Positions 4,539 through 21,673 of a stretch of 64,000 nt of DNA are shown piece by piece (within the stretch, counting starts at the first letter, position 1; the number at the start of each line of letters is the position of its first letter). The DNA comes from Polyangiaceae bacterium (GTDB taxonomy: Bacteria; Myxococcota_A; Polyangia; Polyangiales; Polyangiaceae). The stretch lies in NCBI GenBank assembly GCA_019637295.1, contig JAHBVX010000011.1:17735-81734 (forward strand), read 5' to 3'. A program made the position numbers and the translations under genes. The notes under the pieces were generated by a model. That model did not search any database and was not told the DNA's origin. It was given only the letters and a program-made list of their open reading frames with translations.

Positions 4539-5978
4539 TCACTCCACGACGAACTCGACTCGCCGATTCTTGGACCGCGCCTCGTCGCTCGTGTCCTTCA
4601 CCAGTGGGCGGTCCGGTCCGTAGCCCTCGGCGCTCAGGCGGTTGGGCGCCACGCGGCCACGGTCGATCAAGTACTGACGGACGGCCTGCGCGCGCTGGCG
4701 AGAGAGCCTGCGGTTGACCTCCTTCGGGCCGGTATCGTCCGTGTGGCCTTCGACTCGTACCTTCACGTCCGCGTTGGCCTTGATCATCAGGGCCACCTGG
4801 TCGAGCAGCGAGTGGGACTCTTCCTTGATCTCGGCTTTGCCGTGCTCGAACGTGACCGCGTCCAGGATCTTGAACTGGCCATCTTCGTAGATCACGCGGG
4901 GATCGCCGCTGTCTGGGCAGCCGTCGTGGTCGTCCACGCCGTTGATGGTCTCCTTGGCATCCGGGCACAGATCGTAGCGATCCGGTACCCCGTCCCCGTC
5001 GCTGTCCAGGTCCTCCTCGGGGCAGCCGTCGGTGTCTCGGTCGCCGTCGCGGTCCTCGGGCACATCAGGACACTGGTCTTCGTCGTCGGGAATGCCATCG
5101 TTGTCGCGGTCATGGGCCGTGGGCCTGAAGCGTACGCCCGCGAACACACGGAAGGTGGGGACGCCGTAGCCCGGGATCAAGCCGACACCAGGGCCCGCGG
5201 TGAGCTCCCACTCGGGGGTCGGAGCGTGGCGCAGATAAGCGAAGCCCTCGAGCGGTAGCTCTTCCGCATCGCTCGAACGCAGGCCCACCCCGCCGTTGAG
5301 CTCCAAGCCGATCTCGGTGTTGCCGGTGATCCCCCCGAAGCGATAGCCGACCGCTGCTGCGTACGCCAGCTCGCTCCCGGCCTGGACGTTGCCAAAGTCC
5401 GCGTCTTCTCGGAACAGCACGCCGAGGTTGAAGCCGACGCGGATCCCGTTGATGAAGCGGTGGTCGAGGATGGCCTTGGGCAAGAGCTCGAAGCCGTCTC
5501 CCGTCCCGGAGAAGTCTCCGGTGTGCGTGGGAACGCGCACCTCCGCGGCCAAGGCGAGGCCAACGCTCTCCCGATCGTCGAGTAGTCGCAGCTTGGGTAC
5601 GACCCGCAGCTTGCCCAGTCCGGTGCTCGATGGATCCGCGTCCCCGCTCTGGAGCACGAACGCGGGCAGTCCGACGCCGATCGCCAAGGGACCGGTGAGC
5701 GTCACGGAGCCGAGGACGTCGACGCCCAGGCGACCGCCGACGAAGCTCGCGACGTAGTCGCCCGAACCGTCGACGACGACGAGGGGTCGGTAGGCGTAGT
5801 TGAGGAACAGCCCGAGCTCGAGCGGGTCCTGGCCGGGCCGCACCGCCGAGCCTTCTGCGTTCACGAACCCGTCGTGCGTGACGGCGGGCTGAAAACGTTC
5901 GGCGCTGACTTGCGCCATGGCGGGCGCGGAGAGCCCGAACAGCGATAGGAACAGGAGCGTCGCGTTGATGGGGCGCAT
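4539..5978 (-). CDS. OmpA-family outer-membrane protein with thrombospondin type-3-like Ca-binding repeats (TraB-like architecture)
   Basis: Signal peptide MRPINATLLFLSLFGLSAPAMAQ, followed by a beta-rich N-terminal half. Asp-rich repeats DRDNDGIPDDEDQCPDVPEDRDGDRDTDGCPEEDLDSDGDGVPDRYDLCPD come next. The C-terminal OmpA domain reads VRVEGHTDDTGPKEVNRRLSRQRAQAV...NRRVEFVV. Its start lies 16 nt downstream of the stop of the preceding gene. Confidence 0.88.
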   Translation of the reverse strand: MRPINATLLFLSLFGLSAPAMAQVSAERFQPAVTHDGFVNAEGSAVRPGQDPLELGLFLNYAYRPLVVVDGSGDYVASFVGGRLGVDVLGSVTLTGPLAIGVGLPAFVLQSGDADPSSTGLGKLRVVPKLRLLDDRESVGLALAAEVRVPTHTGDFSGTGDGFELLPKAILDHRFINGIRVGFNLGVLFREDADFGNVQAGSELAYAAAVGYRFGGITGNTEIGLELNGGVGLRSSDAEELPLEGFAYLRHAPTPEWELTAGPGVGLIPGYGVPTFRVFAGVRFRPTAHDRDNDGIPDDEDQCPDVPEDRDGDRDTDGCPEEDLDSDGDGVPDRYDLCPDAKETINGVDDHDGCPDSGDPRVIYEDGQFKILDAVTFEHGKAEIKEESHSLLDQVALMIKANADVKVRVEGHTDDTGPKEVNRRLSRQRAQAVRQYLIDRGRVAPNRLSAEGYGPDRPLVKDTSDEARSKNRRVEFVVE

Positions 5979-5994
5979 GGATCCTCGACCAGGT

Positions 5995-6116
5995 TCAGCG
6001 ACGGCGCGCGCGAGTGCGGCGACGCACCACGAGCGCCAGCCCCAACGCGACCATCAGCCCGAGGTGGCGGGCGGGTAGCCACGGAGCCTGCGCCGCACGG
6101 CAGGCGCACGCGCCTC
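5995..6116 (-). other. MYXO-CTERM-type C-terminal sorting tag (tag 1 of 5 in window)
   Basis: GGACACRAAQAPWLPARHLGLMVALGLALVVRRRTRARRR-stop. This is a Gly/Cys motif, a hydrophobic helix and an Arg cluster. Confidence 0.8.
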
Positions 6117-7194
6117 CCTGGATCTCGTCCTCGGGCCCGAGCGAGAGCCCGGCGCTGCCGGCGCTGCCGGTGCTGCCAATACAGCGGCCGTCGGGTCCAC
6201 AGCGCCGGCCAGCGCCGCACGAATCGTCGCTGTCGCAGTTGGCGCACTGTCCGCCGGCGCAGTAGCGCGTGGCGCAGTCGGCGCCTTCACTACAGGTGCC
6301 GCTCGGCACCAGCAGGCAGCGCCCCTCGCTGCAACGATGCCCGCTCGGGCAATCCGTGTCCAAGGCGCATGGCGGCGTCAGCACGCACTTGCCAGAGACG
6401 CATCGGCCGCCGTTCGGACACTGGGCATCACTGGAGCACGAGCCTGGTGGAACCGACAGGTCCGGTATCCCGTCCTTGTTCGAGTCGGCGGGAACGCACG
6501 GGCCAACCGTGCCCACCTCGAGATCCCCAGCGCCGAGGGCAGCGGTCTCGTTCGTGGTACGAAAGTACAGGTTGACGTCGCACGCCGGCGTGACCCCGAC
6601 TTGGGAAAGCGTCACCGAGAGCTGGATGTACCCGTGCGCATCCTCGCCAACCCGGATGGGGTCGAGGTGACTGCCGCTCTCGCCGCCGATCTGCGCCGGC
6701 GGCACGTTGACCGTCTGGAATCCGCCGGCCTGCCATGCCCACACGTTGGAGATGGAGCCATTGCCGCGGGCCGCGAGCACGTACTCGTAGCCCCCGTTGG
6801 AGGCGTCGGCGACGAACCGTGCGTCGATGTCCGTGGCCGCGGCGCTGCCGCCGGTCGAGGGGTTACGGTCGTTGTCGAGGAACACGTACGCCGTCACGTT
6901 GCCACCGGGACCGTTGGTGTCCGAGACGTACACGCGGGCCCAGAAGCGCGCGTTGTCAGCCATGGCGTAGGCGGTACGTATGTCGATCGCGCGTTCGGGG
7001 GGATTGAACTCGGCGAGGCCGTCGCCGGCGACGTCCTCCGCGCCCCAGGGCCAGCCTGGCTCCCCGGTCTTGTCGATGGCGACGAGCTCGGCCAGCGACG
7101 GCCCCTGCCGCCCCGGGCCCCAGGTCTGCCCCGAGGCCGGCGCGACTGCCAGGAGCAGCGTCGCAGCCGCGTACTTCGTGATCCCGAACCGCAT
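5995..7194 (-). CDS. secreted surface protein: N-terminal beta-rich domain, Cys-rich repeats, MYXO-CTERM tag (TraA-like architecture)
   Basis: Signal peptide MRFGITKYAAATLLLAVAPASGQ, then an uncharacterised domain of about 230 aa. Repeated C-x-x-D-x-x-C-P-x-G-x-x-C-x-x-G-x-C units follow (SSDAQCPNGGRCVSGKC, LDTDCPSGHRCSEGRC, EGADCATRYCAGGQC, DSDDSCGAGRRCGPDGRC). The C-terminus is GGACACRAAQ, a hydrophobic helix, then RRRTRARRR. Confidence 0.85.
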   Translation of the reverse strand: MRFGITKYAAATLLLAVAPASGQTWGPGRQGPSLAELVAIDKTGEPGWPWGAEDVAGDGLAEFNPPERAIDIRTAYAMADNARFWARVYVSDTNGPGGNVTAYVFLDNDRNPSTGGSAAATDIDARFVADASNGGYEYVLAARGNGSISNVWAWQAGGFQTVNVPPAQIGGESGSHLDPIRVGEDAHGYIQLSVTLSQVGVTPACDVNLYFRTTNETAALGAGDLEVGTVGPCVPADSNKDGIPDLSVPPGSCSSDAQCPNGGRCVSGKCVLTPPCALDTDCPSGHRCSEGRCLLVPSGTCSEGADCATRYCAGGQCANCDSDDSCGAGRRCGPDGRCIGSTGSAGSAGLSLGPEDEIQGGACACRAAQAPWLPARHLGLMVALGLALVVRRRTRARRR

Positions 7195-7964: not shown

Positions 7965-9014
7965 CTACCTCTTCGCCGGCGTGCGGGAGCGCCTCTTGGC
8001 GTAGCCCGCCAGGGCCTGCTCGAGTTCGTGCTGGACCCGCTCGACGAGCTCCGGCGGCTCGATGACCCGCGCCCGCGCTCCCCACTCGAGCACCCAGCTC
8101 GCGACGGGGTTGAGGTTGCCCACCGTCATCGTCAAGCGCACGCCGCCGCCGGCCACGGACGCCAGCTTCTGGGTCGCGTGCACCTTCCGCATGCGTACGT
8201 ACTCGGCGGCCTGGGCGTCGAAATCCACCACCACCTTGCGCTTCTTCTCGCTCTTCCACACCCCGAGCTCGCCCTGGAAGTACTCGCCCACGTCGAAGCT
8301 GGCGGGGAGCTCGAACCGCTCGGTGACGGAGCACTCGGTGTCGCGCATGCGGTCGAGGACGAACGTGCGGACTTCGCCCCGGGCGACGTGGTGACCGACG
8401 CAATAGATGGCATCCCGATGCAGCACCATCGCGTAGGGATGGAGCGTGATCCGCTCCTCCTGGGCGCGGCTGCTGCTGCGGTACGAGAGGGTGAGCGGGC
8501 GCAGATCGCTCACGGCCTGGAACAGGTCGTCGAGCTCCTCGGTCTTGTCGCCGTAGTTCTTGGGCGCGAAGGGCAGGTACAAGAAGCGGTCCTCGAGCCT
8601 GGCGTCCGCGAGCCCCGCGTTCGGCCCGCGGCCCGGGCGCTGCGCGAACGCGAGCAGCTTCTTGGTGGCCAGGTCGATCTCGTCGAACAGCGCCGAGCCT
8701 CGCATGGGCTCGAACAGCCGCCGAGCGGCGAGGATGGCATAGGCCTGGGTGCGCCTCAGCTCGACCTTGCGCGGGATCTCGCTCGCGCGGATGCGCCAGA
8801 GCAGCGCCCCGCCAGCGCGGGAGGGGGAGCTCTCGAGGTCCAGCTCCCGCTCCACCTCTTTGAGGTAGCGCCGCATCGTCCGGGGGCTGACCGAGATCGC
8901 GTCGGCCAGCTCGTACAGGGACACGCCCCTGGGGTGCTTGGTGAGCAGCTCGCGCAGTCGATCCAGGCGACGATGCTGCGTGAACCGACCTCGGGGCCGC
9001 CCAACCTTGGCCAT
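7965..9014 (-). CDS. WYL-domain transcriptional regulator (HTH + WYL + WCX, YafY/PafBC-like)
   Basis: Only the last 349 codons of the 1487-aa ORF 7965..12428 look real, starting at ATG 9014 (MAKVGRPRG...). HTH: VSLYELADAISVSPRTMRRYLKEVE. WYL core: ITLHPYAMVLHRDAIYCVGHHVARGEVRTFVLDRM. C-terminal WCX-like segment: VASWVLEWGARARVIEPPELVERV. Confidence 0.87.
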   Translation of the reverse strand: MAKVGRPRGRFTQHRRLDRLRELLTKHPRGVSLYELADAISVSPRTMRRYLKEVERELDLESSPSRAGGALLWRIRASEIPRKVELRRTQAYAILAARRLFEPMRGSALFDEIDLATKKLLAFAQRPGRGPNAGLADARLEDRFLYLPFAPKNYGDKTEELDDLFQAVSDLRPLTLSYRSSSRAQEERITLHPYAMVLHRDAIYCVGHHVARGEVRTFVLDRMRDTECSVTERFELPASFDVGEYFQGELGVWKSEKKRKVVVDFDAQAAEYVRMRKVHATQKLASVAGGGVRLTMTVGNLNPVASWVLEWGARARVIEPPELVERVQHELEQALAGYAKRRSRTPAKR

Positions 9015-9209: not shown

Positions 9210-12200
9210 ATGAACGAGAACCCATTCCTTCTCAGCCGGCTCGCAGCGCGTGCGGGCGCCGCAGCGTTGGTTGGTCTTGCCGCTCTTGCGGTAGCGGCGC
9301 GCCCCGCCTTGGCCCAGCCCTACGACTGCAACTCGCCCAACCCCGCGATGTGGCCGCCCCCGGCCAAGCCCTACTTCATGGTCGTGGTGGACACCTCGGG
9401 GAGCATGGCGGCGTGTACCAACCCACAGACGGCCTGGCCCCAGACCTGCGCGGACGTCGGCGGTGGCGTCAACAACTCGTGCGGCTGGCAGCCCTTGCGG
9501 GTGAACGACGCCAAGTGCGCGCTGCGGAACACCCTCTGGGCCTTCGCGGGCGAGGCGAACTTCGGGTTGGCGTCCTTCTCTCGCACCCTCACGGGCTGCC
9601 CCTCCGCGTGCAACTGGGGCCAGGTCTGGAACAGCACCTTCTGGTATCGCTACGCCTACAACGGCTGCGGCTTCGGGGGCACCGCCTGCGGCGGCGCCAA
9701 CATGCTGGTCGGCATGCAGCTGGATGCGACGCCGACGCCGCCCAGCAACGTCCCCTCCATGGTCGAGTACATGGATCACAACTGCGGCGACAACAAGGAG
9801 CTGTTCGCCTACGACGCCACGCCCATCGGCGCGTCGCTGCAGAACGTTCGGACCTATTTCCAGAGCGGGCTCCCCGGCTTCCCGTCGCCCCTCAACGCCC
9901 AAGATCCCGCCTGCCGCTCCCTGAACGTCATCCTGATGACGGACGGCGGCGAGACCTGCAGCGGTGACCCGGTCACCGCGGCTCAGCAGCTCTACACCGG
10001 CTTCACCAAGGACGGGATCTTCAGGCGCATTTACACTCACGTCATCGCCTTCAACGTGGATGCTCCAGCGGATCAAACCCTGCTGAACAACGTGCACAAG
10101 ATGGGCCAGTGCGGGACCACGACCGGGGCCTGCGCGAACGCCGTGAGCGCCATTCAGGCCAGCGACGAGGTGTCTCTGTCGCAGGCCTTCGCCACGATCA
10201 TCTCCGGCGCGGTGAAGCCGGAGACCTGCAACAACGCGGACGACAACTGCAACGGCTGCATCGACGAGGGCTACGCGCGGTACTGCAACGTGAAGCCCGC
10301 AGGGCAGTGCTGTACGTGGGGCAACCCGACGCAGCGCAACACCTGCCTGACGAACTACCAGAACTCGATCACGCCGAGCAACCCGCAGGGGAACGTGGCG
10401 CTCTTGCCGTGCACGACGGTGGCGCAGTCGCAGAACCCGGCGACGTGGCTGTGCTTCAACCCGGGCGAGCTGTGCGACGACGCGGACAACAACTGCAACG
10501 GGCAGACGGACGAGACCTTCAACAAGTGCGGCAACCCGCTGAAGTGCCCCGGTCCGGAGCTGTGCAACGGCGAGGACGACGACTGCGACGGCATCATCGA
10601 CAACGCGGCGGGCAGCGGCGTCCCCTACAGCGCGTGTCCCAACCAGTGCCAGCCGAGCGCGGAGATCTGCGACGGCTGCGACAACAACTGCAACGGGATC
10701 GCGGACGACGGGGTGGCGGACATCCCGTGCGGCTTCTCGCCGCCGGGCAACTGCGCGGGCGTGCGCACGTGCGTGAGCAAGGGGGTGGCGGTGCCGGTGG
10801 GCGGGTGCGTCGGGCCAACCGCGCCGAAGGGCTTCGGAGCGTGCTCGAACACGCCGCAGCCGGAGATCTGCGACGGGCTGGACAACAACTGTAACGGCAC
10901 GGTGGACGAGGGGATCGCGCCTGGGGCGTGCGAGATCCCTGGTCAGCCCGGGCTGAAGTACCAGGAAGACGGCTTCCCGCTGAGCCAGTGCAAGAAGGGG
11001 ATCTTGCCGTGCAACGGGACGTGCAGCGGTTGGACGGGACCGAGCGCGGAGATTTGCGACGGCATCGACAACGACTGCGACGGGATCGTGGACAACAACA
11101 TCCCGGGTCTGGGTCAGGAGTGCGGGCTGGCGACGGGCCAGTGCAGCAAGGGTCAGACGGCGTGCGTGGGCGGAGTGATCGTGTGCCAGGGCGGGACGCA
11201 GCCGCAGCCGGAGATCTGCGACGGCCTGGACAACGACTGCGACGGGACGACGGACAACGCGCCGATGGTGGACCAGCCGAGCAACCCGGGTTGCTGGAGC
11301 CTGCCGGCGACGGGGTGCAGTCCGACCTGCAGCCACCAGAACGTGTCGTGGTGTCCGCCGGCGGGCGGGACGTGCACGGGGACGGGTACGCTGAGCACGC
11401 CGTGCCAGACGGGTACGCTGGTGTGCGACGGAGCAAACCAGTGGAAGTGCCAGGGCGGAGTGGTGCCGACGGCGGAGGTGTGCGACGGGGTGGACAACAA
11501 CTGCAACAGCCAGGTGGACGAGAGCCTGGGCGCGCCGGTGGGCCAGTCCTGCGGGTCGAGCGTTGGGGAGTGCTCTCCGGGCGTGAACGTGTGCGTGAGC
11601 GGAGTGATCCAGTGCCAGGGCGGGCAAGGTCCGACGCCGGAGGTGTGTGACGGACTGGACAACGACTGCGATGGCGACATCGACAACGGCATCCCGCTGG
11701 GTGGGGCGTGCACGCCGGTGTACGACACGAACCTGTACCCCGGGGATCGGACGAAGGGCGTGTGCAAGCCGGGGGTGCTGGCGTGCGACGGGCAGGGCGG
11801 GACGGTGTGCGTTGGCGGCGTGGGCCCGAGCGCGGAGATCTGCGACGGAGTGGACAACGACTGCGACGGCCAGGTGGACGAGCCCGGGCCTGCCCCGGAC
11901 GGGATCAACGGGACGGAGGACCCGCTGCAGCCCGGGGTGAAGATCGGGGACGCTTGCGGGACGAGCGTTGGGGAGTGCAAGCCCGGGCAGTACGCCTGCG
12001 CGGGCGGGAAGTTCGTGTGCCTGGGCGGAGTGGGTCCGAACCCCGAGGTGTGCGACTGCCTGGACAACGACTGCGACGGCCAGGTGGACAACGAGCCGGC
12101 GGCGGGTTCGCTGTGCAGCACGGGCAAGACGTGTGTGGCGGTGGCTGGAGGGAACTGCCAGTGCGCGGAGCCGTGCGCGGGCGGAGAGTTCCCGTGCCCG

Positions 12201-13196
12201 ACGAGCTTCGAGTGCAAGAACGTGACGAAGAGCGGGACGGGTCAGGCCCTCGGTGACTACTGCGTGAACGACGGCTGCGGGGACTGCACGACGAAGACGG
12301 TGAAGGACCAGCAGACGGGGGTGACGCTGTGTGGTCCGGAGGGAACGGCGGGCAGCAAGCCCGAGTGCGTGTGCAAGGCGAACAAGTGCCAGCACCCGTG
12401 CGCGAACATCCAGTGCCCGACGGGTCAAGAGTGCGCGCTGCAGGGGTCGAGCGCTGGGACGTGCCAGCCGACGGGCAACTGCTTCTTCTTCGGCTGCGAC
12501 GCGGGCGAGGTGTGCAACGGCGGGGTGTGCGTGGCCGACCCGTGCACGCCGAACCCGTGCCAGGCGGACGAGGTGTGCAAGCCGAACGCGACCTTCAGCG
12601 AGCCACGCTGCGTGGGGTCGTGCGCGAGCGTGACGTGTCCGACTGGGCAGCAGTGCGTGGAGGGACAGTGCGAGGAGACGGGCTGCGCGCAGGGCTGCGC
12701 GCCGGGCGAGGTGTGCCAGCCCACGGGTGATGGCGGCTACGCTTGCGGCCCGAACCAGTGCGCGACGGACGCGGGTCAGCCGTGCAGCAACGGCGCGTGG
12801 TGCAACCCGGCGACGGGCGCGTGCGGCAACGAGCCCTGCGAGGGTGTGGTTTGCCCGGTCGCGCAGCTGTGCGCCGAGGGTCAGTGCATCTGGGCGCCCG
12901 AGGGCGGCGCGGGCACCGGCGGCAGCGGCACCGGCGGCAGCGGCACCGGCGGCAGCGGCACCGGCGGCGCCGGACCGGACGCGGGCCTGGGCGGCGGAAG
13001 TGGCGGAAACATCAGCGTTCCGACCACCGACCCCGAGCGCGGGGTCTGGGGCCTGGCCACCGGCGGCGGCGGCTGCGCCTGCCGCGCGGCCGGGACCGAC
13101 CGGCGCACGCCGCTCGGCGCGGCCTTGGCATTCGGCGCTCTGGCGGTCGCTCTTGGCTTCCGCCGGCGACGCCGAGGTGCTCTTCTAGGAGGCTGA
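9210..13196 (+). CDS. giant secreted surface protein, paralog A: VWA/MIDAS-like head, 11 CDGxDNDCDGxxDE metal-binding-type repeats, Cys-rich EGF-like stalk, (GTGGS)n linker, MYXO-CTERM
   Basis: 1328 aa with signal peptide ...LAALAVAARPALAQ. The head carries PYFMVVVDTSGSM (a DxSGS MIDAS motif) and NVILMTDGGETCSGD. The repeats include EICDGIDNDCDGIVDN and EVCDGLDNDCDGDIDNG. The C-terminus is GGGGCACRAAG...ALAVALGFRRRRRG. Confidence 0.9.
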   Translation: MNENPFLLSRLAARAGAAALVGLAALAVAARPALAQPYDCNSPNPAMWPPPAKPYFMVVVDTSGSMAACTNPQTAWPQTCADVGGGVNNSCGWQPLRVNDAKCALRNTLWAFAGEANFGLASFSRTLTGCPSACNWGQVWNSTFWYRYAYNGCGFGGTACGGANMLVGMQLDATPTPPSNVPSMVEYMDHNCGDNKELFAYDATPIGASLQNVRTYFQSGLPGFPSPLNAQDPACRSLNVILMTDGGETCSGDPVTAAQQLYTGFTKDGIFRRIYTHVIAFNVDAPADQTLLNNVHKMGQCGTTTGACANAVSAIQASDEVSLSQAFATIISGAVKPETCNNADDNCNGCIDEGYARYCNVKPAGQCCTWGNPTQRNTCLTNYQNSITPSNPQGNVALLPCTTVAQSQNPATWLCFNPGELCDDADNNCNGQTDETFNKCGNPLKCPGPELCNGEDDDCDGIIDNAAGSGVPYSACPNQCQPSAEICDGCDNNCNGIADDGVADIPCGFSPPGNCAGVRTCVSKGVAVPVGGCVGPTAPKGFGACSNTPQPEICDGLDNNCNGTVDEGIAPGACEIPGQPGLKYQEDGFPLSQCKKGILPCNGTCSGWTGPSAEICDGIDNDCDGIVDNNIPGLGQECGLATGQCSKGQTACVGGVIVCQGGTQPQPEICDGLDNDCDGTTDNAPMVDQPSNPGCWSLPATGCSPTCSHQNVSWCPPAGGTCTGTGTLSTPCQTGTLVCDGANQWKCQGGVVPTAEVCDGVDNNCNSQVDESLGAPVGQSCGSSVGECSPGVNVCVSGVIQCQGGQGPTPEVCDGLDNDCDGDIDNGIPLGGACTPVYDTNLYPGDRTKGVCKPGVLACDGQGGTVCVGGVGPSAEICDGVDNDCDGQVDEPGPAPDGINGTEDPLQPGVKIGDACGTSVGECKPGQYACAGGKFVCLGGVGPNPEVCDCLDNDCDGQVDNEPAAGSLCSTGKTCVAVAGGNCQCAEPCAGGEFPCPTSFECKNVTKSGTGQALGDYCVNDGCGDCTTKTVKDQQTGVTLCGPEGTAGSKPECVCKANKCQHPCANIQCPTGQECALQGSSAGTCQPTGNCFFFGCDAGEVCNGGVCVADPCTPNPCQADEVCKPNATFSEPRCVGSCASVTCPTGQQCVEGQCEETGCAQGCAPGEVCQPTGDGGYACGPNQCATDAGQPCSNGAWCNPATGACGNEPCEGVVCPVAQLCAEGQCIWAPEGGAGTGGSGTGGSGTGGSGTGGAGPDAGLGGGSGGNISVPTTDPERGVWGLATGGGGCACRAAGTDRRTPLGAALAFGALAVALGFRRRRRGALLGG
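10207..13177 (+). repeat. direct repeat copy 1 (about 2.97 kb, near-identical to 14367..17337)
   Basis: Line-by-line comparison at a constant 4160-nt offset. I saw substitutions only at 10226, 10268, 10271, 10314, 10466, 10637, 10640, 10644, 10646 and 13160. Alternate-frame ORFs in the track are identical between copies (for example 11153..12217 versus 15313..16377). Confidence 0.95.
12912..12968 (+). repeat. in-frame 15-nt tandem repeat ggcaccggcggcagc (about 3.8 units) encoding a (GTGGS)n linker
   Basis: Read directly: ggcaccggcggcagc x3, then ggcaccggcggcgcc. It translates to GTGGSGTGGSGTGGSGTGGA. Confidence 0.9.
13062..13196 (+). other. MYXO-CTERM-type sorting tag (tag 2 of 5)
   Basis: GGGGCACRAAGTDRRTPLGAALAFGALAVALGFRRRRRGALLGG-stop. 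Confidence 0.8.
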
Positions 13197-13216
13197 GGCT
13201 CTTTCTCGAACGGGAC

Positions 13217-16200
13217 ATGATGCAGAAGCACACAGTGCGAGCGACCAGTCGGCGCAGGCTCGGGTTCTGGGCGGCAGCAGCGGCCAGCGGGGTGGCAGCC
13301 TTGGCCCTGTGCAGCCCACGATCGGCCGCAGCGCAACCCTACGACTGCAACTCGCCCAACCCTGCGATGTGGCCGCCGCCGGCGAAGCCCTACTTCATGC
13401 TCCTGGTCGACACGTCGGGCAGCATGGTGGGGTGCACCAACCCCTCCACCTCGAACTACCAGTTTCCGAACTCGTGTCCCAGCACCGCGCCGCAGAACTC
13501 CTGCGGCATGGAGCCTACCCGCATCAACGACGCCAAGTGTGCGCTCCGGCAGACCGTGCAGGCGTTCGCCGGCGAGGTGAACTTCGGCCTGGCGACCTTC
13601 CCGGTCAACCTCGCGGGCTGCGGGAACGGAGCGTGCGTGGACACCTGCACGGCGGCCAGTGGCTCGTGCACGCTCTCCGGCGGCGTGGGTACCTCCGGCG
13701 AGTACCACGCCGGCAACGGCTGCTCGGTCACCGGCTACACGAACACGAGCGATGGCGCGAGCTGCGGCAACTTCCCGAGCTGCGGTCCCGCCGGTCCCGC
13801 CGCCCCCAACTTGGCCAAGGGCACCTGGCGCAACGGCGGCAAGATCGTGGTCGACATGCTGCGCGACACCACCCCCCCCGGAGCCAGCAACGTGGCCACC
13901 CTGCTCGAGTGGTTCGACGGCAACTGCAACAACAGCCGAGAGCTGTTCGCGATCGGGGGCACGCCCATCGGCGGGTCCCTGCGCACCATTCACCAGTACT
14001 TCCTCGCCGGTTGGAACTCCGGCTGGCACACGACGAACTACTGCGCCAGCGGGCTGTCCTACACGAGCCCCACCCCCATGGACCCCGCGGACCCGCAGTG
14101 CCGCAACTTGAACGTCATCCTGGTGACGGACGGCGACCCGAGCTGCGGAGACACCGTGGCCTCGTCCGTCAGCGCGGCGCAGGCGCTCTTCCAGCAGGGA
14201 GTCACCTTTGGGGGCAAGAACTTCCCCGTGCGGACCCACGTCATCAACTTCGCTGGTGGCGTCCAGTCCACCACGGACCAGATCGCGGCGGCGGGCGGCA
14301 CGGTGGCGTCACTCTCGGCCAACAACGAGGTCACCCTCGCGCAGGCGCTCTCGACGATCATCGCGAGCGCGGTGAAGCCGGAGACGTGCAACAACGCGGA
14401 CGACAACTGCAACGGCTGCATCGACGAAGGTTACGCGCGGTACTGCAACGTGAAGCCCGCAGGGCAGTGCTGTGCGTGGGGCAACCCGACGCAGCGCAAC
14501 ACCTGCCTGACGAACTACCAGAACTCGATCACGCCGAGCAACCCGCAGGGGAACGTGGCGCTCTTGCCGTGCACGACGGTGGCGCAGTCGCAGAACCCGG
14601 CGACGTGGCTGTGCTTCAACCCGGGGGAGCTGTGCGACGACGCGGACAACAACTGCAACGGGCAGACGGACGAGACCTTCAACAAGTGCGGCAACCCGCT
14701 GAAGTGCCCCGGTCCGGAGCTGTGCAACGGCGAGGACGACGACTGCGACGGCATCATCGACAACGCGGCGGGCAGCGGCGTCCCCTACAGCGCGTGCCCA
14801 AACAATTGCCAGCCGAGCGCGGAGATCTGCGACGGCTGCGACAACAACTGCAACGGGATCGCGGACGACGGGGTGGCGGACATCCCGTGCGGCTTCTCGC
14901 CGCCGGGCAACTGCGCGGGCGTGCGCACGTGCGTGAGCAAGGGGGTGGCGGTGCCGGTGGGCGGGTGCGTCGGGCCAACCGCGCCGAAGGGCTTCGGAGC
15001 GTGCTCGAACACGCCGCAGCCGGAGATCTGCGACGGGCTGGACAACAACTGTAACGGCACGGTGGACGAGGGGATCGCGCCTGGGGCGTGCGAGATCCCT
15101 GGTCAGCCCGGGCTGAAGTACCAGGAAGACGGCTTCCCGCTGAGCCAGTGCAAGAAGGGGATCTTGCCGTGCAACGGGACGTGCAGCGGTTGGACGGGAC
15201 CGAGCGCGGAGATTTGCGACGGCATCGACAACGACTGCGACGGGATCGTGGACAACAACATCCCGGGTCTGGGTCAGGAGTGCGGGCTGGCGACGGGCCA
15301 GTGCAGCAAGGGTCAGACGGCGTGCGTGGGCGGAGTGATCGTGTGCCAGGGCGGGACGCAGCCGCAGCCGGAGATCTGCGACGGCCTGGACAACGACTGC
15401 GACGGGACGACGGACAACGCGCCGATGGTGGACCAGCCGAGCAACCCGGGTTGCTGGAGCCTGCCGGCGACGGGGTGCAGTCCGACCTGCAGCCACCAGA
15501 ACGTGTCGTGGTGTCCGCCGGCGGGCGGGACGTGCACGGGGACGGGTACGCTGAGCACGCCGTGCCAGACGGGTACGCTGGTGTGCGACGGAGCAAACCA
15601 GTGGAAGTGCCAGGGCGGAGTGGTGCCGACGGCGGAGGTGTGCGACGGGGTGGACAACAACTGCAACAGCCAGGTGGACGAGAGCCTGGGCGCGCCGGTG
15701 GGCCAGTCCTGCGGGTCGAGCGTTGGGGAGTGCTCTCCGGGCGTGAACGTGTGCGTGAGCGGAGTGATCCAGTGCCAGGGCGGGCAAGGTCCGACGCCGG
15801 AGGTGTGTGACGGACTGGACAACGACTGCGATGGCGACATCGACAACGGCATCCCGCTGGGTGGGGCGTGCACGCCGGTGTACGACACGAACCTGTACCC
15901 CGGGGATCGGACGAAGGGCGTGTGCAAGCCGGGGGTGCTGGCGTGCGACGGGCAGGGCGGGACGGTGTGCGTTGGCGGCGTGGGCCCGAGCGCGGAGATC
16001 TGCGACGGAGTGGACAACGACTGCGACGGCCAGGTGGACGAGCCCGGGCCTGCCCCGGACGGGATCAACGGGACGGAGGACCCGCTGCAGCCCGGGGTGA
16101 AGATCGGGGACGCTTGCGGGACGAGCGTTGGGGAGTGCAAGCCCGGGCAGTACGCCTGCGCGGGCGGGAAGTTCGTGTGCCTGGGCGGAGTGGGTCCGAA

Positions 16201-17389
16201 CCCCGAGGTGTGCGACTGCCTGGACAACGACTGCGACGGCCAGGTGGACAACGAGCCGGCGGCGGGTTCGCTGTGCAGCACGGGCAAGACGTGTGTGGCG
16301 GTGGCTGGAGGGAACTGCCAGTGCGCGGAGCCGTGCGCGGGCGGAGAGTTCCCGTGCCCGACGAGCTTCGAGTGCAAGAACGTGACGAAGAGCGGGACGG
16401 GTCAGGCCCTCGGTGACTACTGCGTGAACGACGGCTGCGGGGACTGCACGACGAAGACGGTGAAGGACCAGCAGACGGGGGTGACGCTGTGTGGTCCGGA
16501 GGGAACGGCGGGCAGCAAGCCCGAGTGCGTGTGCAAGGCGAACAAGTGCCAGCACCCGTGCGCGAACATCCAGTGCCCGACGGGTCAAGAGTGCGCGCTG
16601 CAGGGGTCGAGCGCTGGGACGTGCCAGCCGACGGGCAACTGCTTCTTCTTCGGCTGCGACGCGGGCGAGGTGTGCAACGGCGGGGTGTGCGTGGCCGACC
16701 CGTGCACGCCGAACCCGTGCCAGGCGGACGAGGTGTGCAAGCCGAACGCGACCTTCAGCGAGCCACGCTGCGTGGGGTCGTGCGCGAGCGTGACGTGTCC
16801 GACTGGGCAGCAGTGCGTGGAGGGACAGTGCGAGGAGACGGGCTGCGCGCAGGGCTGCGCGCCGGGCGAGGTGTGCCAGCCCACGGGTGATGGCGGCTAC
16901 GCTTGCGGCCCGAACCAGTGCGCGACGGACGCGGGTCAGCCGTGCAGCAACGGCGCGTGGTGCAACCCGGCGACGGGCGCGTGCGGCAACGAGCCCTGCG
17001 AGGGTGTGGTTTGCCCGGTCGCGCAGCTGTGCGCCGAGGGTCAGTGCATCTGGGCGCCCGAGGGCGGCGCGGGCACCGGCGGCAGCGGCACCGGCGGCAG
17101 CGGCACCGGCGGCAGCGGCACCGGCGGCGCCGGACCGGACGCGGGCCTGGGCGGCGGAAGTGGCGGAAACATCAGCGTTCCGACCACCGACCCCGAGCGC
17201 GGGGTCTGGGGCCTGGCCACCGGCGGCGGCGGCTGCGCCTGCCGCGCGGCCGGGACCGACCGGCGCACGCCGCTCGGCGCGGCCTTGGCATTCGGCGCTC
17301 TGGCGGTCGCTCTTGGCTTGCGCCGGCGACGCCGAGGCCCCTCGAGAGACGAAACGGTCGACGGCATGACTGAAGGAGACGCGCGATGA
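13217..17389 (+). CDS. giant secreted surface protein, paralog B: divergent VWA/MIDAS-like head, with stalk and MYXO-CTERM almost identical to paralog A
   Basis: In-frame ATG at 13217 (MMQKHTVRATSRRRLGFWAAAAASGVAALALC...AAAQ) within ORF 12743..17389, giving 1390 aa. The head has PYFMLLVDTSGSM and NVILVTDGDPSCGD. From AVKPETCNNADDNCNG onward it matches paralog A. The C-terminus is GGGGCACRAAG...ALGLRRRRRG plus a 16-aa tail. Confidence 0.9.
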   Translation: MMQKHTVRATSRRRLGFWAAAAASGVAALALCSPRSAAAQPYDCNSPNPAMWPPPAKPYFMLLVDTSGSMVGCTNPSTSNYQFPNSCPSTAPQNSCGMEPTRINDAKCALRQTVQAFAGEVNFGLATFPVNLAGCGNGACVDTCTAASGSCTLSGGVGTSGEYHAGNGCSVTGYTNTSDGASCGNFPSCGPAGPAAPNLAKGTWRNGGKIVVDMLRDTTPPGASNVATLLEWFDGNCNNSRELFAIGGTPIGGSLRTIHQYFLAGWNSGWHTTNYCASGLSYTSPTPMDPADPQCRNLNVILVTDGDPSCGDTVASSVSAAQALFQQGVTFGGKNFPVRTHVINFAGGVQSTTDQIAAAGGTVASLSANNEVTLAQALSTIIASAVKPETCNNADDNCNGCIDEGYARYCNVKPAGQCCAWGNPTQRNTCLTNYQNSITPSNPQGNVALLPCTTVAQSQNPATWLCFNPGELCDDADNNCNGQTDETFNKCGNPLKCPGPELCNGEDDDCDGIIDNAAGSGVPYSACPNNCQPSAEICDGCDNNCNGIADDGVADIPCGFSPPGNCAGVRTCVSKGVAVPVGGCVGPTAPKGFGACSNTPQPEICDGLDNNCNGTVDEGIAPGACEIPGQPGLKYQEDGFPLSQCKKGILPCNGTCSGWTGPSAEICDGIDNDCDGIVDNNIPGLGQECGLATGQCSKGQTACVGGVIVCQGGTQPQPEICDGLDNDCDGTTDNAPMVDQPSNPGCWSLPATGCSPTCSHQNVSWCPPAGGTCTGTGTLSTPCQTGTLVCDGANQWKCQGGVVPTAEVCDGVDNNCNSQVDESLGAPVGQSCGSSVGECSPGVNVCVSGVIQCQGGQGPTPEVCDGLDNDCDGDIDNGIPLGGACTPVYDTNLYPGDRTKGVCKPGVLACDGQGGTVCVGGVGPSAEICDGVDNDCDGQVDEPGPAPDGINGTEDPLQPGVKIGDACGTSVGECKPGQYACAGGKFVCLGGVGPNPEVCDCLDNDCDGQVDNEPAAGSLCSTGKTCVAVAGGNCQCAEPCAGGEFPCPTSFECKNVTKSGTGQALGDYCVNDGCGDCTTKTVKDQQTGVTLCGPEGTAGSKPECVCKANKCQHPCANIQCPTGQECALQGSSAGTCQPTGNCFFFGCDAGEVCNGGVCVADPCTPNPCQADEVCKPNATFSEPRCVGSCASVTCPTGQQCVEGQCEETGCAQGCAPGEVCQPTGDGGYACGPNQCATDAGQPCSNGAWCNPATGACGNEPCEGVVCPVAQLCAEGQCIWAPEGGAGTGGSGTGGSGTGGSGTGGAGPDAGLGGGSGGNISVPTTDPERGVWGLATGGGGCACRAAGTDRRTPLGAALAFGALAVALGLRRRRRGPSRDETVDGMTEGDAR
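14367..17337 (+). repeat. direct repeat copy 2 (about 2.97 kb, near-identical to 10207..13177)
   Basis: Same comparison as copy 1. Identity begins at gcgcggtgaagccggagac and ends after gccgagg (17337). Confidence 0.95.
17072..17128 (+). repeat. same 15-nt tandem repeat in paralog B
   Basis: Identical sequence at a +4160 nt offset. Confidence 0.9.
17222..17389 (+). other. MYXO-CTERM-type sorting tag (tag 3 of 5) with an extra acidic tail
   Basis: GGGGCACRAAGTDRRTPLGAALAFGALAVALGLRRRRRGPSRDETVDGMTEGDAR-stop. Confidence 0.75.
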
Positions 17390-20300
17390 AGTGGCTAACA
17401 GCAGCCCTGGTCTCGAGTACGGTGCTCGCGTTGGCGGTAGCGCCGGCCTGCACGACCTCGAGCTTCTGCTTCGAGGATTGTGACGGTGACGGCGGCAAGG
17501 GGACCGGCGGCACAGGCGACGGAGGTCTGTGGGACGGCCAGGTCATCGACGGCGCGTCAGGCGACACGGGCGTCATCGGCATCGACACCGGCACGGGCGA
17601 CGCGTGCGTCGCGACGAACAACGGCGTCGAGATTTGTGATGGTATCGACAACGACTGCAACGGAGTCATCGACGACGGGTTCGACTTCACCAAGACCCAG
17701 AGCTGCGGCACCTGCGACAACAACTGCGCCCTGGGCGCGAGCGCCCCGGTGAACGTCGTGAACCCGAGCTGCGACCCACCGTCGACCACGGACGGCACCG
17801 TCGCGGGCACCTGCAAGTGGGAGAAGTGTGCCCAGGATTTCTACGATATCGACAAAGGCAAGCCGGGAGAGATCCTGGGCTGCGAGTATCAGTGCCCCTG
17901 GAACCCGGACGGTACGGTCACCGTGGACACCGGCGGGTCGGAGGGCTGCGGACGGGACGACGACTGCGACGGCTTGATCGACGAGGACCTGAACACCTGC
18001 GACGACATCGACAACTGCGGCAAGTGCGGCAAGCCCTGCGTCATCCCCAACGGGACGGCCAAGTGCACGACGACCGCGCAGCAGGGGCAGCAGTGTACCG
18101 AGGCCAACACCAAGTGCGAGATCGCGTCGTGTGACGCGGGCTACCACGACGCCGACAAGGCGGCGGGCAACGGCTGCGAGTACCAGTGCACACCCACCGG
18201 TCCCGAGATCTGCGACGGCATCGACAACGACTGCGACGGTAAGATCGACAACACCGACGACAGCCTCGAGGTCGACGACCCCAACGTCGGCCAGACCTGC
18301 CAGGGTGGGGTCAACGGCATCTGCGCCGACCCGGCCAACGCCGGCGTCAAGAAGTGCATCGGGGGCCAGATCAGCTGCTGCGACGTGGGCTCGAACAACG
18401 TCAGCTCCACCAACCCCAACCTGCCGGTCACCGGCCTCCGCAACGGCGTGTGTAGCGCTCCGACTGGCCCCAAGGTCATCAAGCCCGGGGACGTGCAGGA
18501 GACCTGCAACAACAAGGACGACGACTGCGACGGGGTCGTGGACGACTCACCCATCGACCAGGGCGGAACTTGTGGCAGCACCGTCGGCAGCTGCCAGGCC
18601 GGTACCCAGCAGTGTCAGAGTGGCGCGCTGGTGTGCGTGGGCAACACCGTTCCCGCTGCCGAAATCTGCAACGGCCAGGACAACAACTGCGACGGCGTGA
18701 TCGACGGCATCATGGTGACCCCGGTGGTCGCGTGCACCCAGGACGCGCAGTGTTCGGGCAGCGCCAGGTGCATGATCCGCTCGGGTCCCACGGACCGCGT
18801 GTGTGCGCTGCGGCCCACGGACGTGGGCACCACCTGCGACACCTTCCCACCGCCGCCCGCGGGTTACACCTCGCCCTGCCAGGCGGGCACGCTGGCCTGC
18901 GTGGGTGGCGTGAAGGTGTGTCAGGGCTCGATCAAGCCGAACGCCGTCTCCGACACCTGCGGCCAGGACACCAACTGCAACGGCGTGTACGAGGGACCGA
19001 CGCCGCAGCAGATGCAGACGGACGTCAAGAACTGCGGGAGTTGCGGCAACGACTGCGGCCAGATCTCGCCCGGCGGCCACGGCGTGTGGGCGTGTCAGGC
19101 CGGCCAGTGCGTGCGCACCGGCTGCGAGGCGAACTACATCAACTGCGACGGCAACAACAACGACTGCGAGCGCTTCTGCACCTTCGTGTCGGCGAACGAG
19201 CAGTGCAACGGCATCGACGACAACTGCAACTGCCAGGTGGACGAGAACATCACCGCCGTGCCCAGCCCGGTGTCCGTCTGCGGCGTCGCGGCGGCCGCGA
19301 ATGATCCTGGGTGCCTGCCCCGCCACCCCACGACCAACCCCACGGGTGTACAGGTCAGCTGCAACAACGGCGGTTGGCAGTGCTCGTTCACCAGCGGGTA
19401 CTGCTCGGGCAGTCCGCCGGACTGCTCCACCACCGTGGACACCTGCGACAACAAGGACAACAACTGCAACGGCGCCACGGACGAGAGCTTCAAGCCTCCG
19501 ATCTTGAATCAAGGTTACGTGGGCCAACAGTGCGCGAGCGACGACGGCCTCCCCGCGCCCGGCCACGGTCAGTGCCGGACTCAGGGACAGTTCGTGTGCA
19601 CGAGCGCTACCACGACCGGGTGCAACGCTACGAAGAACAACGCCGCCGCGGGCACGGAGCTGTGCGACGGAGTGGACAACGACTGCGACGGCCTAGTGGA
19701 CGAGCCCTTCACCAACAAGGGCACCAACACCACGCACTTCGTGCGGCCCGCGGTGACTCAGCTCGCGACCAACCTGTGGATGACGCAGTACGAGGTCAGC
19801 CGCCCGGGGGCCACCAACGTCAATCCGGGTAACGGCAACGGCTACCAGACCGCGGCACCGACGGGCGTCACGCTGGACCGGGTGCAGGGCTGCTCGGTCG
19901 CGGGTGTCATCCCCTGGTTCAACGTCACGCCGGTCGAGGCTCAACAGGTCTGCGCGGCGCGCGGAGGCCGGTTGTGCTCCACCGGGGAGTGGCAGACCGC
20001 GTGCCGGACGCCCAGCAACGCCTGCACCTGGGGCTACAACCCGCGCACGGGCTCTCCGGCTCCATGTACGCTGGCTGGGACGTATACAGCGGGCACGGGC
20101 CGAGTGTGCAACATCGGGCCCTTCGACTTCGACGGCAACCCGGTCAACGGAGTCACCAACGGCCTGTTGCCGACGGCGTCGGCGTCGCTGCAAAACTGCT
20201 GGGCGGACTGGGCCGGCAGCACCGGCAACACGGCGGCGTTCAACAACATCCGCGACATCACCGGCAACCTCGGCGAGATCGTCCAACACTCGGGCACGAA

Positions 20301-20469
20301 CTGCGGCGCCGTGAACAACACCTGCGTCTACAAGGTGATGGGTGGTGGGTTCAACACGGCGGCGGAGAGCGGCGCGACCTGCAACTTCACGTTCTACAGC
20401 GTCGACAAGGACTTCAAGCTCTACGACGCCGGCTTCCGCTGCTGCTTCACCAGCAACCCGACCCTCTGA
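17386..20469 (+). CDS. Cys-rich probable lipoprotein with about 10 CDGxDNDCDG-type repeats and a C-terminal FGE/SUMF1-like (C-type-lectin fold) domain
   Basis: 1027 aa. ATG 17386 overlaps the paralog B stop as ATGA. N-terminus MKWLTAALVSSTVLALAVAPAC. Repeats include EICDGIDNDCNGVIDDG, EICDGIDNDCDGKIDN and ELCDGVDNDCDGLVDEP. The last roughly 250 aa are FGE-sulfatase-like (LWMTQYEVSRPGA, VPWFNVTPVEAQQVCAARGGRLCSTGEWQTAC, ITGNLGEIV, GGGFN, DAGFRCCF). Confidence 0.85.
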   Translation: MKWLTAALVSSTVLALAVAPACTTSSFCFEDCDGDGGKGTGGTGDGGLWDGQVIDGASGDTGVIGIDTGTGDACVATNNGVEICDGIDNDCNGVIDDGFDFTKTQSCGTCDNNCALGASAPVNVVNPSCDPPSTTDGTVAGTCKWEKCAQDFYDIDKGKPGEILGCEYQCPWNPDGTVTVDTGGSEGCGRDDDCDGLIDEDLNTCDDIDNCGKCGKPCVIPNGTAKCTTTAQQGQQCTEANTKCEIASCDAGYHDADKAAGNGCEYQCTPTGPEICDGIDNDCDGKIDNTDDSLEVDDPNVGQTCQGGVNGICADPANAGVKKCIGGQISCCDVGSNNVSSTNPNLPVTGLRNGVCSAPTGPKVIKPGDVQETCNNKDDDCDGVVDDSPIDQGGTCGSTVGSCQAGTQQCQSGALVCVGNTVPAAEICNGQDNNCDGVIDGIMVTPVVACTQDAQCSGSARCMIRSGPTDRVCALRPTDVGTTCDTFPPPPAGYTSPCQAGTLACVGGVKVCQGSIKPNAVSDTCGQDTNCNGVYEGPTPQQMQTDVKNCGSCGNDCGQISPGGHGVWACQAGQCVRTGCEANYINCDGNNNDCERFCTFVSANEQCNGIDDNCNCQVDENITAVPSPVSVCGVAAAANDPGCLPRHPTTNPTGVQVSCNNGGWQCSFTSGYCSGSPPDCSTTVDTCDNKDNNCNGATDESFKPPILNQGYVGQQCASDDGLPAPGHGQCRTQGQFVCTSATTTGCNATKNNAAAGTELCDGVDNDCDGLVDEPFTNKGTNTTHFVRPAVTQLATNLWMTQYEVSRPGATNVNPGNGNGYQTAAPTGVTLDRVQGCSVAGVIPWFNVTPVEAQQVCAARGGRLCSTGEWQTACRTPSNACTWGYNPRTGSPAPCTLAGTYTAGTGRVCNIGPFDFDGNPVNGVTNGLLPTASASLQNCWADWAGSTGNTAAFNNIRDITGNLGEIVQHSGTNCGAVNNTCVYKVMGGGFNTAAESGATCNFTFYSVDKDFKLYDAGFRCCFTSNPTL

Positions 20470-21568: not shown

Positions 21569-21673
21569 TCGAGCCTCGGAGTACGGGCTTGCCGGTCCGA
21601 CGCGGCGGCGGTGAGGGGCGAATTCGGGCCGATCCTGGGCTCCCTTGGCCGCCATCGCTGCTAGGCTCGGCCA

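Follow-up and report, generated by a model that had tools for sequence, protein, structure and literature searches.

The locus described here raises the question of why two adjacent genes carry almost identical stalks and markedly different N-terminal heads. The genes, designated A and B, lie in tandem within a 64,000-nucleotide stretch of contig JAHBVX010000011.1 from a Polyangiaceae bacterium (the whole stretch is referred to as the window), in a region with a G+C content of 69%. Gene A encodes, in order, a signal peptide, a head predicted to be a von Willebrand factor A (VWA) domain that contains a MIDAS (metal ion-dependent adhesion site), a Cys-rich stalk of MopE-type repeats, a Gly-rich linker, and a MYXO-CTERM-like tail. 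Gene B, which starts 20 nt beyond the stop of gene A, has the same architecture. The answer favored here, and considered probable, is that these tandem paralogs are surface adhesins or receptors in which two old heads are carried on one scaffold homogenized by gene conversion. The parts of the two genes on which this answer draws are the following (positions are those of the window):

9210-13196, + strand: gene A, 1328 aa (open reading frame; G+C at third codon positions, GC3, of 0.91)
9210-9314, + strand: signal peptide of A (MNENPF...ARPALA, then QPYDC), read from the sequence
9315-10235, + strand: head A, 307 aa, predicted divergent VWA domain, head type T1
10207-13177, + strand: gene-conversion tract, copy 1 (stalk of A), with its core at 10647-13159
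13065-13196, + strand: MYXO-CTERM-like sorting signal of A (GGGCACRAAG, transmembrane helix, RRRRRG)
13217-17389, + strand: gene B, 1390 aa, starting MMQKHT
13334-14395, + strand: head B, 354 aa, predicted divergent VWA domain, head type T9
14367-17337, + strand: gene-conversion tract, copy 2 (stalk of B), pairing with copy 1

Positions 10157-13177 and 14317-17337 are 99.2% identical at the DNA level, with no gaps. Mismatches are dense up to nucleotide 10206, ten sites differ in 10207-10646, and none differ in 10647-13159, which matches 14807-17319 at 100% over 2,513 nt. The switch in identity falls at the first codon of AVKPETCNN, where the head ends, and synonymous divergence (dS) between the stalks of A and B is 0.014. 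The earlier note on this DNA had called the stalks homogenized, and the comparison with related loci bears this out independently in four species, as the stalk identity within a genome is 99, 99, 98, and 98% (in the window and at loci L001, L005, and L006, respectively) versus 58-85% between species. The heads are 51-55% identical within a genome, and across genomes they are 82-87% identical for the A type and 67-83% identical for the B type. Because the heads are orthologous across species and the stalks group by genome, homogenization must have followed speciation, and the recurrence of the same pattern in four species excludes a single recent duplication or an assembly artifact as a general explanation. 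In all four species the near-identical tract begins 23-78 nt before the junction and runs through the first gene to a point ~20 nt short of its stop, and the mismatch profiles of L005 and L006 are mosaic. These patterns require that gene conversion has recurred, each time halting at the boundary between head and stalk. Stalk homogenization is lineage-specific and not obligatory.

Two observations concern the corresponding stalks at other loci. In four Polyangium species (L017, L023, L025, and L062), the paired stalks are 70-73% identical and group by position. At L003 (10001-13900), the reading frame of the stalk in the first gene of the pair is interrupted after 142 aa and its later pieces fall in different frames; the gene is a pseudogene, or else the long-read metagenome-assembled genome (MAG) contains indel errors.

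The heads themselves were compared with each other and with their relatives, for which heads were called by tblastn and 92 intact heads were extracted from 79 loci. Cleavage of the signal peptide of A was placed by the AxA motif together with the family-wide start of conservation at Q/E-P-x-x-C. Both mature proteins begin alike, as the earlier note had described: QPYDCNSPNPAMWPPPAKPYFM begins at A36 and B40, right behind signal-peptide ends of the AxA type, and leads into VVVDTSGSM (A) or LLVDTSGSM (B), with the 22 mature N-terminal residues identical. The other shared anchors that it named are also present, the NVIL(M/V)TDG motif as NVILMTDG at A239 and NVILVTDG at B299, and the AVKPETCNN junction at A334 and B385. 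The claimed extensive divergence between these anchors holds as well, with a global alignment giving ~50% identity and several indels and ruling out uniform similarity. The figure of roughly 60 extra residues in B needs adjustment: head B is indeed the longer one, but its net excess is 51 residues, with ~70 extra residues over three loops of head B and ~16 extra in another loop of head A. Since the length of head B is near the family median (92 family members), head A is the shortened form.

The two heads agree in the strands of the core, in the MIDAS loops, at 19 of 19 residues of the N-terminal arm, and at 8 of 8 residues of the junction. Most of what distinguishes them is found in four places, namely the Cys-rich loop directly after DxSxSM, the insertion between strand B and strand C (39 aa in A versus 79 aa in B), the loop before strand D (18 versus 33 aa), and the helix 5 region (33 versus 20 aa; 20 positions can be aligned, of which 3 are identical). 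The largest of these insertions lie as follows:

9579-9695, + strand: aromatic-rich 39-aa insertion between strands B and C in head A (CNWGQVWNSTFWYRYAYNGC)
13598-13834, + strand: Cys-rich 79-aa insertion between strands B and C in head B, including the 49-residue string quoted earlier as an example of extra sequence (B149-197)

The 31 shared N-terminal codons differ between A and B by a nonsynonymous divergence (dN) of 0.028 and a dS of 0.48, so that the protein identity in this part results from purifying selection and not from recent copying. A second recent conversion tract at the N-terminus was considered and rejected, as dS there is like that of the rest of the head. The signal peptide of B (13217-13333) contains TSRRRLGFW, which on inspection is loosely twin-arginine-like, and that of A has no such motif; twin-arginine (Tat) export would be odd for a protein with >120 cysteines.

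Comparison of the heads with their orthologs bears on whether the difference between A and B is maintained. Between-species estimates with the NG86 method, for which the closest available genome is 87% identical in head A, give dN/dS ratios between the window and its L001 ortholog of 0.08 for head A, 0.23 for head B, and 0.19 for the stalk, values that are rough because the orthologous dS is near saturation (~1.1). Three of the four variable places show identities that depend on head type:

Loop after DxSxSM: 85% within the A type, 67% within the B type, 43% between types
Strand B to strand C insertion: 61% within the A type, 54% within the B type, 24% between types
Helix 5 region: 82-83% within the A type, 71-80% within the B type, 11-20% between types

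The A-type heads retain an aromatic-rich loop, CNWG.(V/F)W...FWYRYAYNGC, and the B-type heads retain CNPPNALGTEGEFY. These loops, conserved within a type and not between types, carry the signature of two maintained functions rather than of drift or hypervariation, and by these comparisons the two heads are old orthologous types under purifying selection. The within-type orthology, the low dN/dS ratios, and the type-specific loops lend indirect backing to the earlier proposal that the heads serve two specificities. The accompanying comparison with polymorphic recognition receptors stands only in part: the heads are not hypervariable, so that the comparison becomes one of architectural analogy, but the replacement of head cassettes between species described below adds some weight to it. 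Diversifying selection or hypervariability of the heads was rejected for the window lineage on the basis of the dN/dS ratios (0.08-0.23) and the loops kept within each type. In the Polyangium clade, a single computed pair (L017 versus L025) gives dN/dS ratios of 0.43-0.60 for heads and 0.24-0.26 for stalks, a hint that selection on the heads of this clade is relaxed or positive.

The proposal that both heads are VWA domains with a MIDAS site was addressed by structure prediction. AlphaFold2 models built on a 10-sequence alignment (pLDDT 64.9 and pTM 0.72 for head A; pLDDT 65.4 and pTM 0.74 for head B) both show the canonical order of secondary structure, bA-a1-bB-bC-a2-a3-bD-a4-bE-a5-bF-a6. 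Foldseek searches of the PDB returned 141 matches for head A and 48 for head B at E<=1e-3, and the top matches are all VWA domains (best E 5e-8 for A and 6e-7 for B; target-normalized TM 0.6-0.76), including TFIIH p44/Ssl1, BatB, the integrin alpha2 I domain, factor B, Rpn10, the anthrax toxin receptor, SpaC, and PilB; those of head B include BatB, Rpn10, TFIIH p44, and the anthrax receptor. Inside the homologous stretch, P0154, a distant member of the family, exceeds the Pfam VWA cutoff (PF00092, 25.8 bits against 23.8). The putative metal-binding residues are encoded at these positions:

9390-9392 (D26), 9396-9398 (S28), 9402-9404 (S30), 9819-9821 (T169), and 9942-9944 (D210), + strand: predicted MIDAS of head A
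13409-13411 (D26), 13415-13417 (S28), 13421-13423 (S30), 13961-13963 (T210), and 14129-14131 (D266), + strand: predicted MIDAS of head B

In the numbering of A, D26, S28, and S30 follow strand A, T169 precedes helix 3, and D210 follows strand D. These five residues are invariant in all 92 heads from the 79 Polyangiaceae loci, as are eight cysteines. A VWA fold with a complete MIDAS motif is thereby supported for both modeled heads, in agreement with the earlier note, and the loop after DxSxS and the strand B to strand C insertion would, by VWA topology, sit on the MIDAS face.

The stalk on which each head is carried is ~990 aa long, 11% Cys, and rich in Asp and Asn. A regular-expression search located 11 copies of the motif C-x-G-x-D-[ND]-[ND]-C-[DN]-G in the stalk of A, and a full-length Pfam scan of A and B gave only PF11617 (Cu-binding_MopE; E 7e-43 in A and 2.8e-39 in B, with seven stretches in each) and no significant VWA call. 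Past the MopE motifs follow a further Cys-rich part, a (GTGGS)n linker, and a visible three-part C-terminal tail with a hydrophobic helix in its middle, GGGCAC...LGAALAFGALAVALG...RRRRRG. A MYXO-CTERM signal sends TraA of Myxococcus xanthus to the cell surface via myxosortase (PMC11980579). Among the loci with complete genes, the stalk keeps to a narrow length of 956-1000 aa across species despite identity down to 50%, which suggests that its length is under constraint.

The distribution of related genes was surveyed at several levels. A word-indexed protein search returned 8 proteins, mostly fragments, all from Myxococcales or Polyangiaceae MAGs, and an exhaustive profile search returned 1,208 cluster representatives at E<=1e-3. 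A genome scan located 78 loci, all in Polyangia (e.g., Polyangium, Chondromyces, and Byssovorax), the best of which is 87% identical to head A, and a metagenome scan located 4 loci at an identity of <=79%. No sequence from the same species was found in the collections searched, and protein A is not on record there. The related genes recur in a syntenic order, consisting of an SLT transglycosylase, a divergent HTH-WYL-WCX regulator, one or two VWA-stalk genes, a gene corresponding to the next gene of the window (gene C), and often a thymidine phosphorylase. The counterparts in the window are the following:

7965-9008, - strand: HTH-WYL-WCX regulator, divergently transcribed (Pfam WYL E 2e-17, WCX E 9e-17)
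17386-20469, + strand: gene C, 1027 aa, co-oriented with genes A and B
23538-24854, - strand: thymidine phosphorylase

Clustering at 60% identity sorts the heads into ~20 types. At the WYL-adjacent site, the sets of heads differ among species whose regulators are 75-85% identical to that of the window:

T1 and T9: the window and L001
T15 and T9: L005
T1 and T12: L003
T12 alone: L050, L053, L063, L077, and L078
T9 alone: L012 and L021

A pairing of T15 with T7 also occurs at the locus, and many genomes have a single gene there. Locus-wide DNA comparisons show 72-84% identity throughout, save for a clean gap inside one head; the gap covers the interior of head 1 when L001 or the window is compared with L005, and the interior of head 2 when the window is compared with L003. 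Head cassettes are replaced between species at one syntenic site. Either of two routes would fit this replacement: recombination in the interval from the conserved N-terminal arm to the stalk may have swapped the heads, or species may have lost different members of an older array of several genes through unequal crossing-over between homogenized stalks. The same head family also occurs in other architectures among distant representatives (P0066, P0099, P0105, P0139, and P0051), in which the head is internal and follows FG-GAP (integrin-alpha-like), disintegrin-like, or DUF4215 Cys-rich repeats.

According to the favored interpretation, A and B would be exported by their signal peptides and probably lipid-anchored on the outer surface, the C-terminal MYXO-CTERM signal being processed by myxosortase, with the N-terminal VWA domain held at the tip of a ~990-residue disulfide-rich stalk. 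The MIDAS site would bind a carboxylate or glycan of the ligand through a divalent cation. By VWA topology, the arm at the N-terminus of the head and its last helix would both be located across from the MIDAS, on the side where the stalk begins, so that the metal site and the large variable loops would point away from the stalk. Since the heads are old and separately conserved, a cell would display two binding specificities on one scaffold. Repeated intergenic conversion keeps the stalks near-identical, each tract stopping where DNA homology ends, at the domain junction, and across Polyangiaceae the locus holds one or two genes drawn from the ~20 head types. The analysis shows the sequence pattern, the predicted VWA fold, the invariance of the MIDAS residues, stalk concerted evolution, head-type orthology, and the replacement of cassettes; surface anchoring, adhesin function, distinct ligands, and loop orientation are the parts of this scheme that we infer. 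A wider reading, in which ~20 head cassettes make up a modular surface-recognition system and are exchanged or sorted by recombination between arm and homogenized stalk, so that each species or strain displays its own set of one or two heads for cell-cell (kin), prey, or matrix recognition, is tentative and rather doubtful; if true, it would represent a functional parallel to TraA built on an integrin-like, metal-dependent head.

Several observations weigh against the interpretation of A and B as surface-anchored VWA adhesins with selected heads on a shared scaffold. The MYXO-CTERM model TIGR03901 scores 19.6 bits in A and 19.1 bits in B, just short of the cutoff of 20. Applied to the isolated heads, PF13519 (VWA_2) reaches 16.0 bits in A and 16.5 bits in B (E 0.02 and 0.013) against a cutoff of 27, and a search of PDB sequences with the family profile gave only noise (E>1). 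The confidence of the AlphaFold2 models is moderate (mean pLDDT 65) and falls below 50 in the variable loops, so that the position of these loops relative to the MIDAS comes from topology only. The near-saturated dS makes the dN/dS ratios coarse. The 70-73% identity of the paired Polyangium stalks means that a homogenized stalk is not needed for function, and stalk homogenization may be a neutral by-product of tandem homology.

This last point leads to the possibility that the difference between the heads has no function at all, A and B being redundant structural or matrix proteins whose heads drifted beyond the reach of recombination and whose stalk identity is neutral. A conversion boundary at the end of DNA homology is expected without selection, Polyangium species do well with diverged stalks, and many genomes manage with one gene at the locus. 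However, each head type is retained across species at dN/dS ratios of 0.08-0.23, the loops that distinguish the types are 54-85% conserved within a type, and the MIDAS residues are invariant in 92 heads, and this explanation is considered unlikely. The frequency of single-gene loci also speaks against a second alternative, that A and B form an integrin-like heterodimer in which the stalks pair, the heads create a composite site, and homogenization is selected. The partner type varies as well (T1 with T9, T1 with T12, T15 with T9, and T15 with T7), and the paired stalks of Polyangium are only 70% identical. Such a heterodimer is regarded as distinctly improbable, even though the genes are tandem, co-oriented, and probably co-expressed, the stalks are near-identical in four species, and FG-GAP repeats occur in some family relatives (P0066). 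In the integrin beta I domain, the specificity-determining loop lies between strands B and C, and the largest variable insertion of the heads falls at the same place, which would also fit pairing.

A perfect repeat of 2.5 kb is hard to assemble, no record of the proteins of the window was found, and the stalk identity might be attributed to an assembly error, or else to a very recent duplication, rather than to conversion. Either is very hard to credit, because four independently assembled species-level genomes show the same pattern, two of them on contigs of 3.5 Mb (L005) and 0.9 Mb (L006), the mosaics of mismatches differ among genomes, and the heads are orthologous across species and the stalks group by genome. 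The mismatches form a gradient, 8 falling within the initial 450 nt of the stalk and 1 within the 2,492 nt that follow, which fits nested conversion tracts. It is also quite improbable that A and B are metal-handling or matrix-scaffold proteins in which the VWA head serves assembly and not the recognition of an external ligand. The combination of a binding domain at the N-terminus with a Cys-rich stalk and a MYXO-CTERM-like tail is that of the surface receptors TraA (PMC3325183) and CglD (10.1101/2023.10.19.562135). Metal handling would account for PF11617 as the only significant Pfam match and for a stalk with 11% Cys and abundant Asp and Asn, but PF11617 is described only as a 'putative metal-binding motif', and the strictly conserved MIDAS points to ligand binding. 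The reading of A and B as surface adhesins or receptors is accordingly retained as the probable one.

Myxobacteria are the main bacterial model for multicellular behavior, and to our knowledge the known myxobacterial proteins of surface recognition and adhesion (TraA, CglB, and CglD) all come from Myxococcus. TraA of M. xanthus is the kin-recognition receptor for outer-membrane exchange, with a PA14 head, a Cys-rich stalk, and a MYXO-CTERM tail (PMC3325183). It resembles A and B in overall architecture, with a signal peptide, an N-terminal binding domain that sets specificity (as the heads of A and B may do), a long stalk of Cys-rich repeats, and a MYXO-CTERM anchor, which in A and B is a MYXO-CTERM-like tail (PMC3325183, PMC11980579), and both systems place a variable head on a conserved stalk. 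They differ in the head (VWA/MIDAS in A and B, PA14 in TraA), in the stalk repeats (MopE-type PF11617 versus TIGR04201), in gene number (two tandem copies with old head types versus one highly polymorphic gene), and in the lack of an adjacent TraB partner in the operon of A and B. Pfam scans found no PA14 domain in either head, and an NCBIfam scan at E<=1 gave only MYXO-CTERM and no TIGR04201 in A or B; the same library picks up TIGR04201 in the neighboring gene at 5995-7194. Membership in the TraA family was rejected on the head domain (a predicted VWA fold, no PA14) and the repeat type. The gliding-motility adhesins CglD and CglB of M. xanthus, likened here by architecture, are likewise found on the surface of a myxobacterium and have a VWA domain with a MIDAS. 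CglD has been described as beta-integrin-like, with a C-terminal VWA domain (residues 644-1111) and an EGF-like Cys-rich stalk (10.1101/2023.10.19.562135; PMC9946355). However, CglB and CglD are lipoproteins that carry their lipid at the N-terminus and are linked to the Glt machinery, and A and B differ from CglD in the N-terminal position of the VWA domain, the C-terminal MYXO-CTERM-like anchor, the locus, and the suborder.

Beyond the myxobacteria, the heads share the fold and the DxSxS...T...D arrangement of the MIDAS with integrin alpha I and beta I domains, the anthrax toxin receptor, SpaC, and PilB (Streptococcus sanguinis), and like the integrin beta I domain they have a large lineage-specific insertion between strands B and C. 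They differ from integrin I domains and VWA adhesins in that identity is 9-16%, in their four Cys-rich insertions and eight invariant cysteines, and in falling under the Pfam threshold. The evolutionary pattern also has counterparts, since in Helicobacter pylori babA/babB and the yeast FLO genes conversion homogenizes one part, the part that binds the ligand remains different, and recombination produces chimeras. On partial concerted evolution of adhesin paralogs, see also PMC3512402 and PMC4552749. Genes A and B share with bab and FLO the partial homogenization of paralogous surface-protein genes with a distinct binding part, but A and B are adjacent, the tract takes in the whole 3-kb stalk, and the same boundary recurs in several free-living soil species. 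The locus is an unusually clean case of domain-delimited concerted evolution, in which species differ in head cassettes at one syntenic site. It also defines a widespread, uncharacterized family that is missed by current Pfam models and combines a predicted integrin-like MIDAS head with a Cys-rich stalk. If the heads set specificity, their ~20 types would represent a natural panel on an interchangeable scaffold for studying how bacterial surface recognition diversifies.

The surroundings of genes A and B include a candidate partner. The stop of gene B overlaps the start of gene C by 4 nt (ATGA), and gene C, which is kept downstream of the VWA gene or genes across family loci, encodes MopE-type repeats and a C-terminal domain of ~250 aa with a weak FGE-sulfatase/C-type-lectin-like match (E 8e-4, below the cutoff). 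This domain is 40-47% identical to those of the L001, L003, and L005 orthologs, making it the fastest-evolving piece of the locus, and it is a candidate partner or ligand. Genes A and B are probably co-transcribed, to judge from their tandem layout, and a promoter and terminator scan of 8.8-21.8 kb was uninformative. The HTH-WYL-WCX regulator adjoins the VWA gene or genes in 38 of the loci that were fetched.

A distant TraAB-like gene pair is located 2 kb upstream (4539-7194, - strand) and was not found in the flanks of related loci. The gene at 5995-7194 (- strand, 399 aa) encodes a signal peptide, a beta-rich domain of ~230 aa, repeats that match TIGR04201 Myxo_Cys_RPT at 26.2 bits (cutoff 25), and a tail resembling MYXO-CTERM. 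The overlapping gene at 4539-6053 (504 aa) encodes an OmpA C-terminal domain, and its best NCBIfam match is exchanger_TraB (171 bits, E 2.5e-50), far under the cutoff of 700. On the other side, the interval 20534-23473 (+ strand), between gene C and the thymidine phosphorylase, holds two genes, one for a histidine methyltransferase of the EgtD type (PF10017, E 3e-100) and one for a MYXO-CTERM protein of 599 aa (TIGR03901, 20.9 bits, over the cutoff of 20). At many related loci, the thymidine phosphorylase lies ~1 kb past the matched part of gene C, and these two genes therefore look like an insertion in the window lineage.

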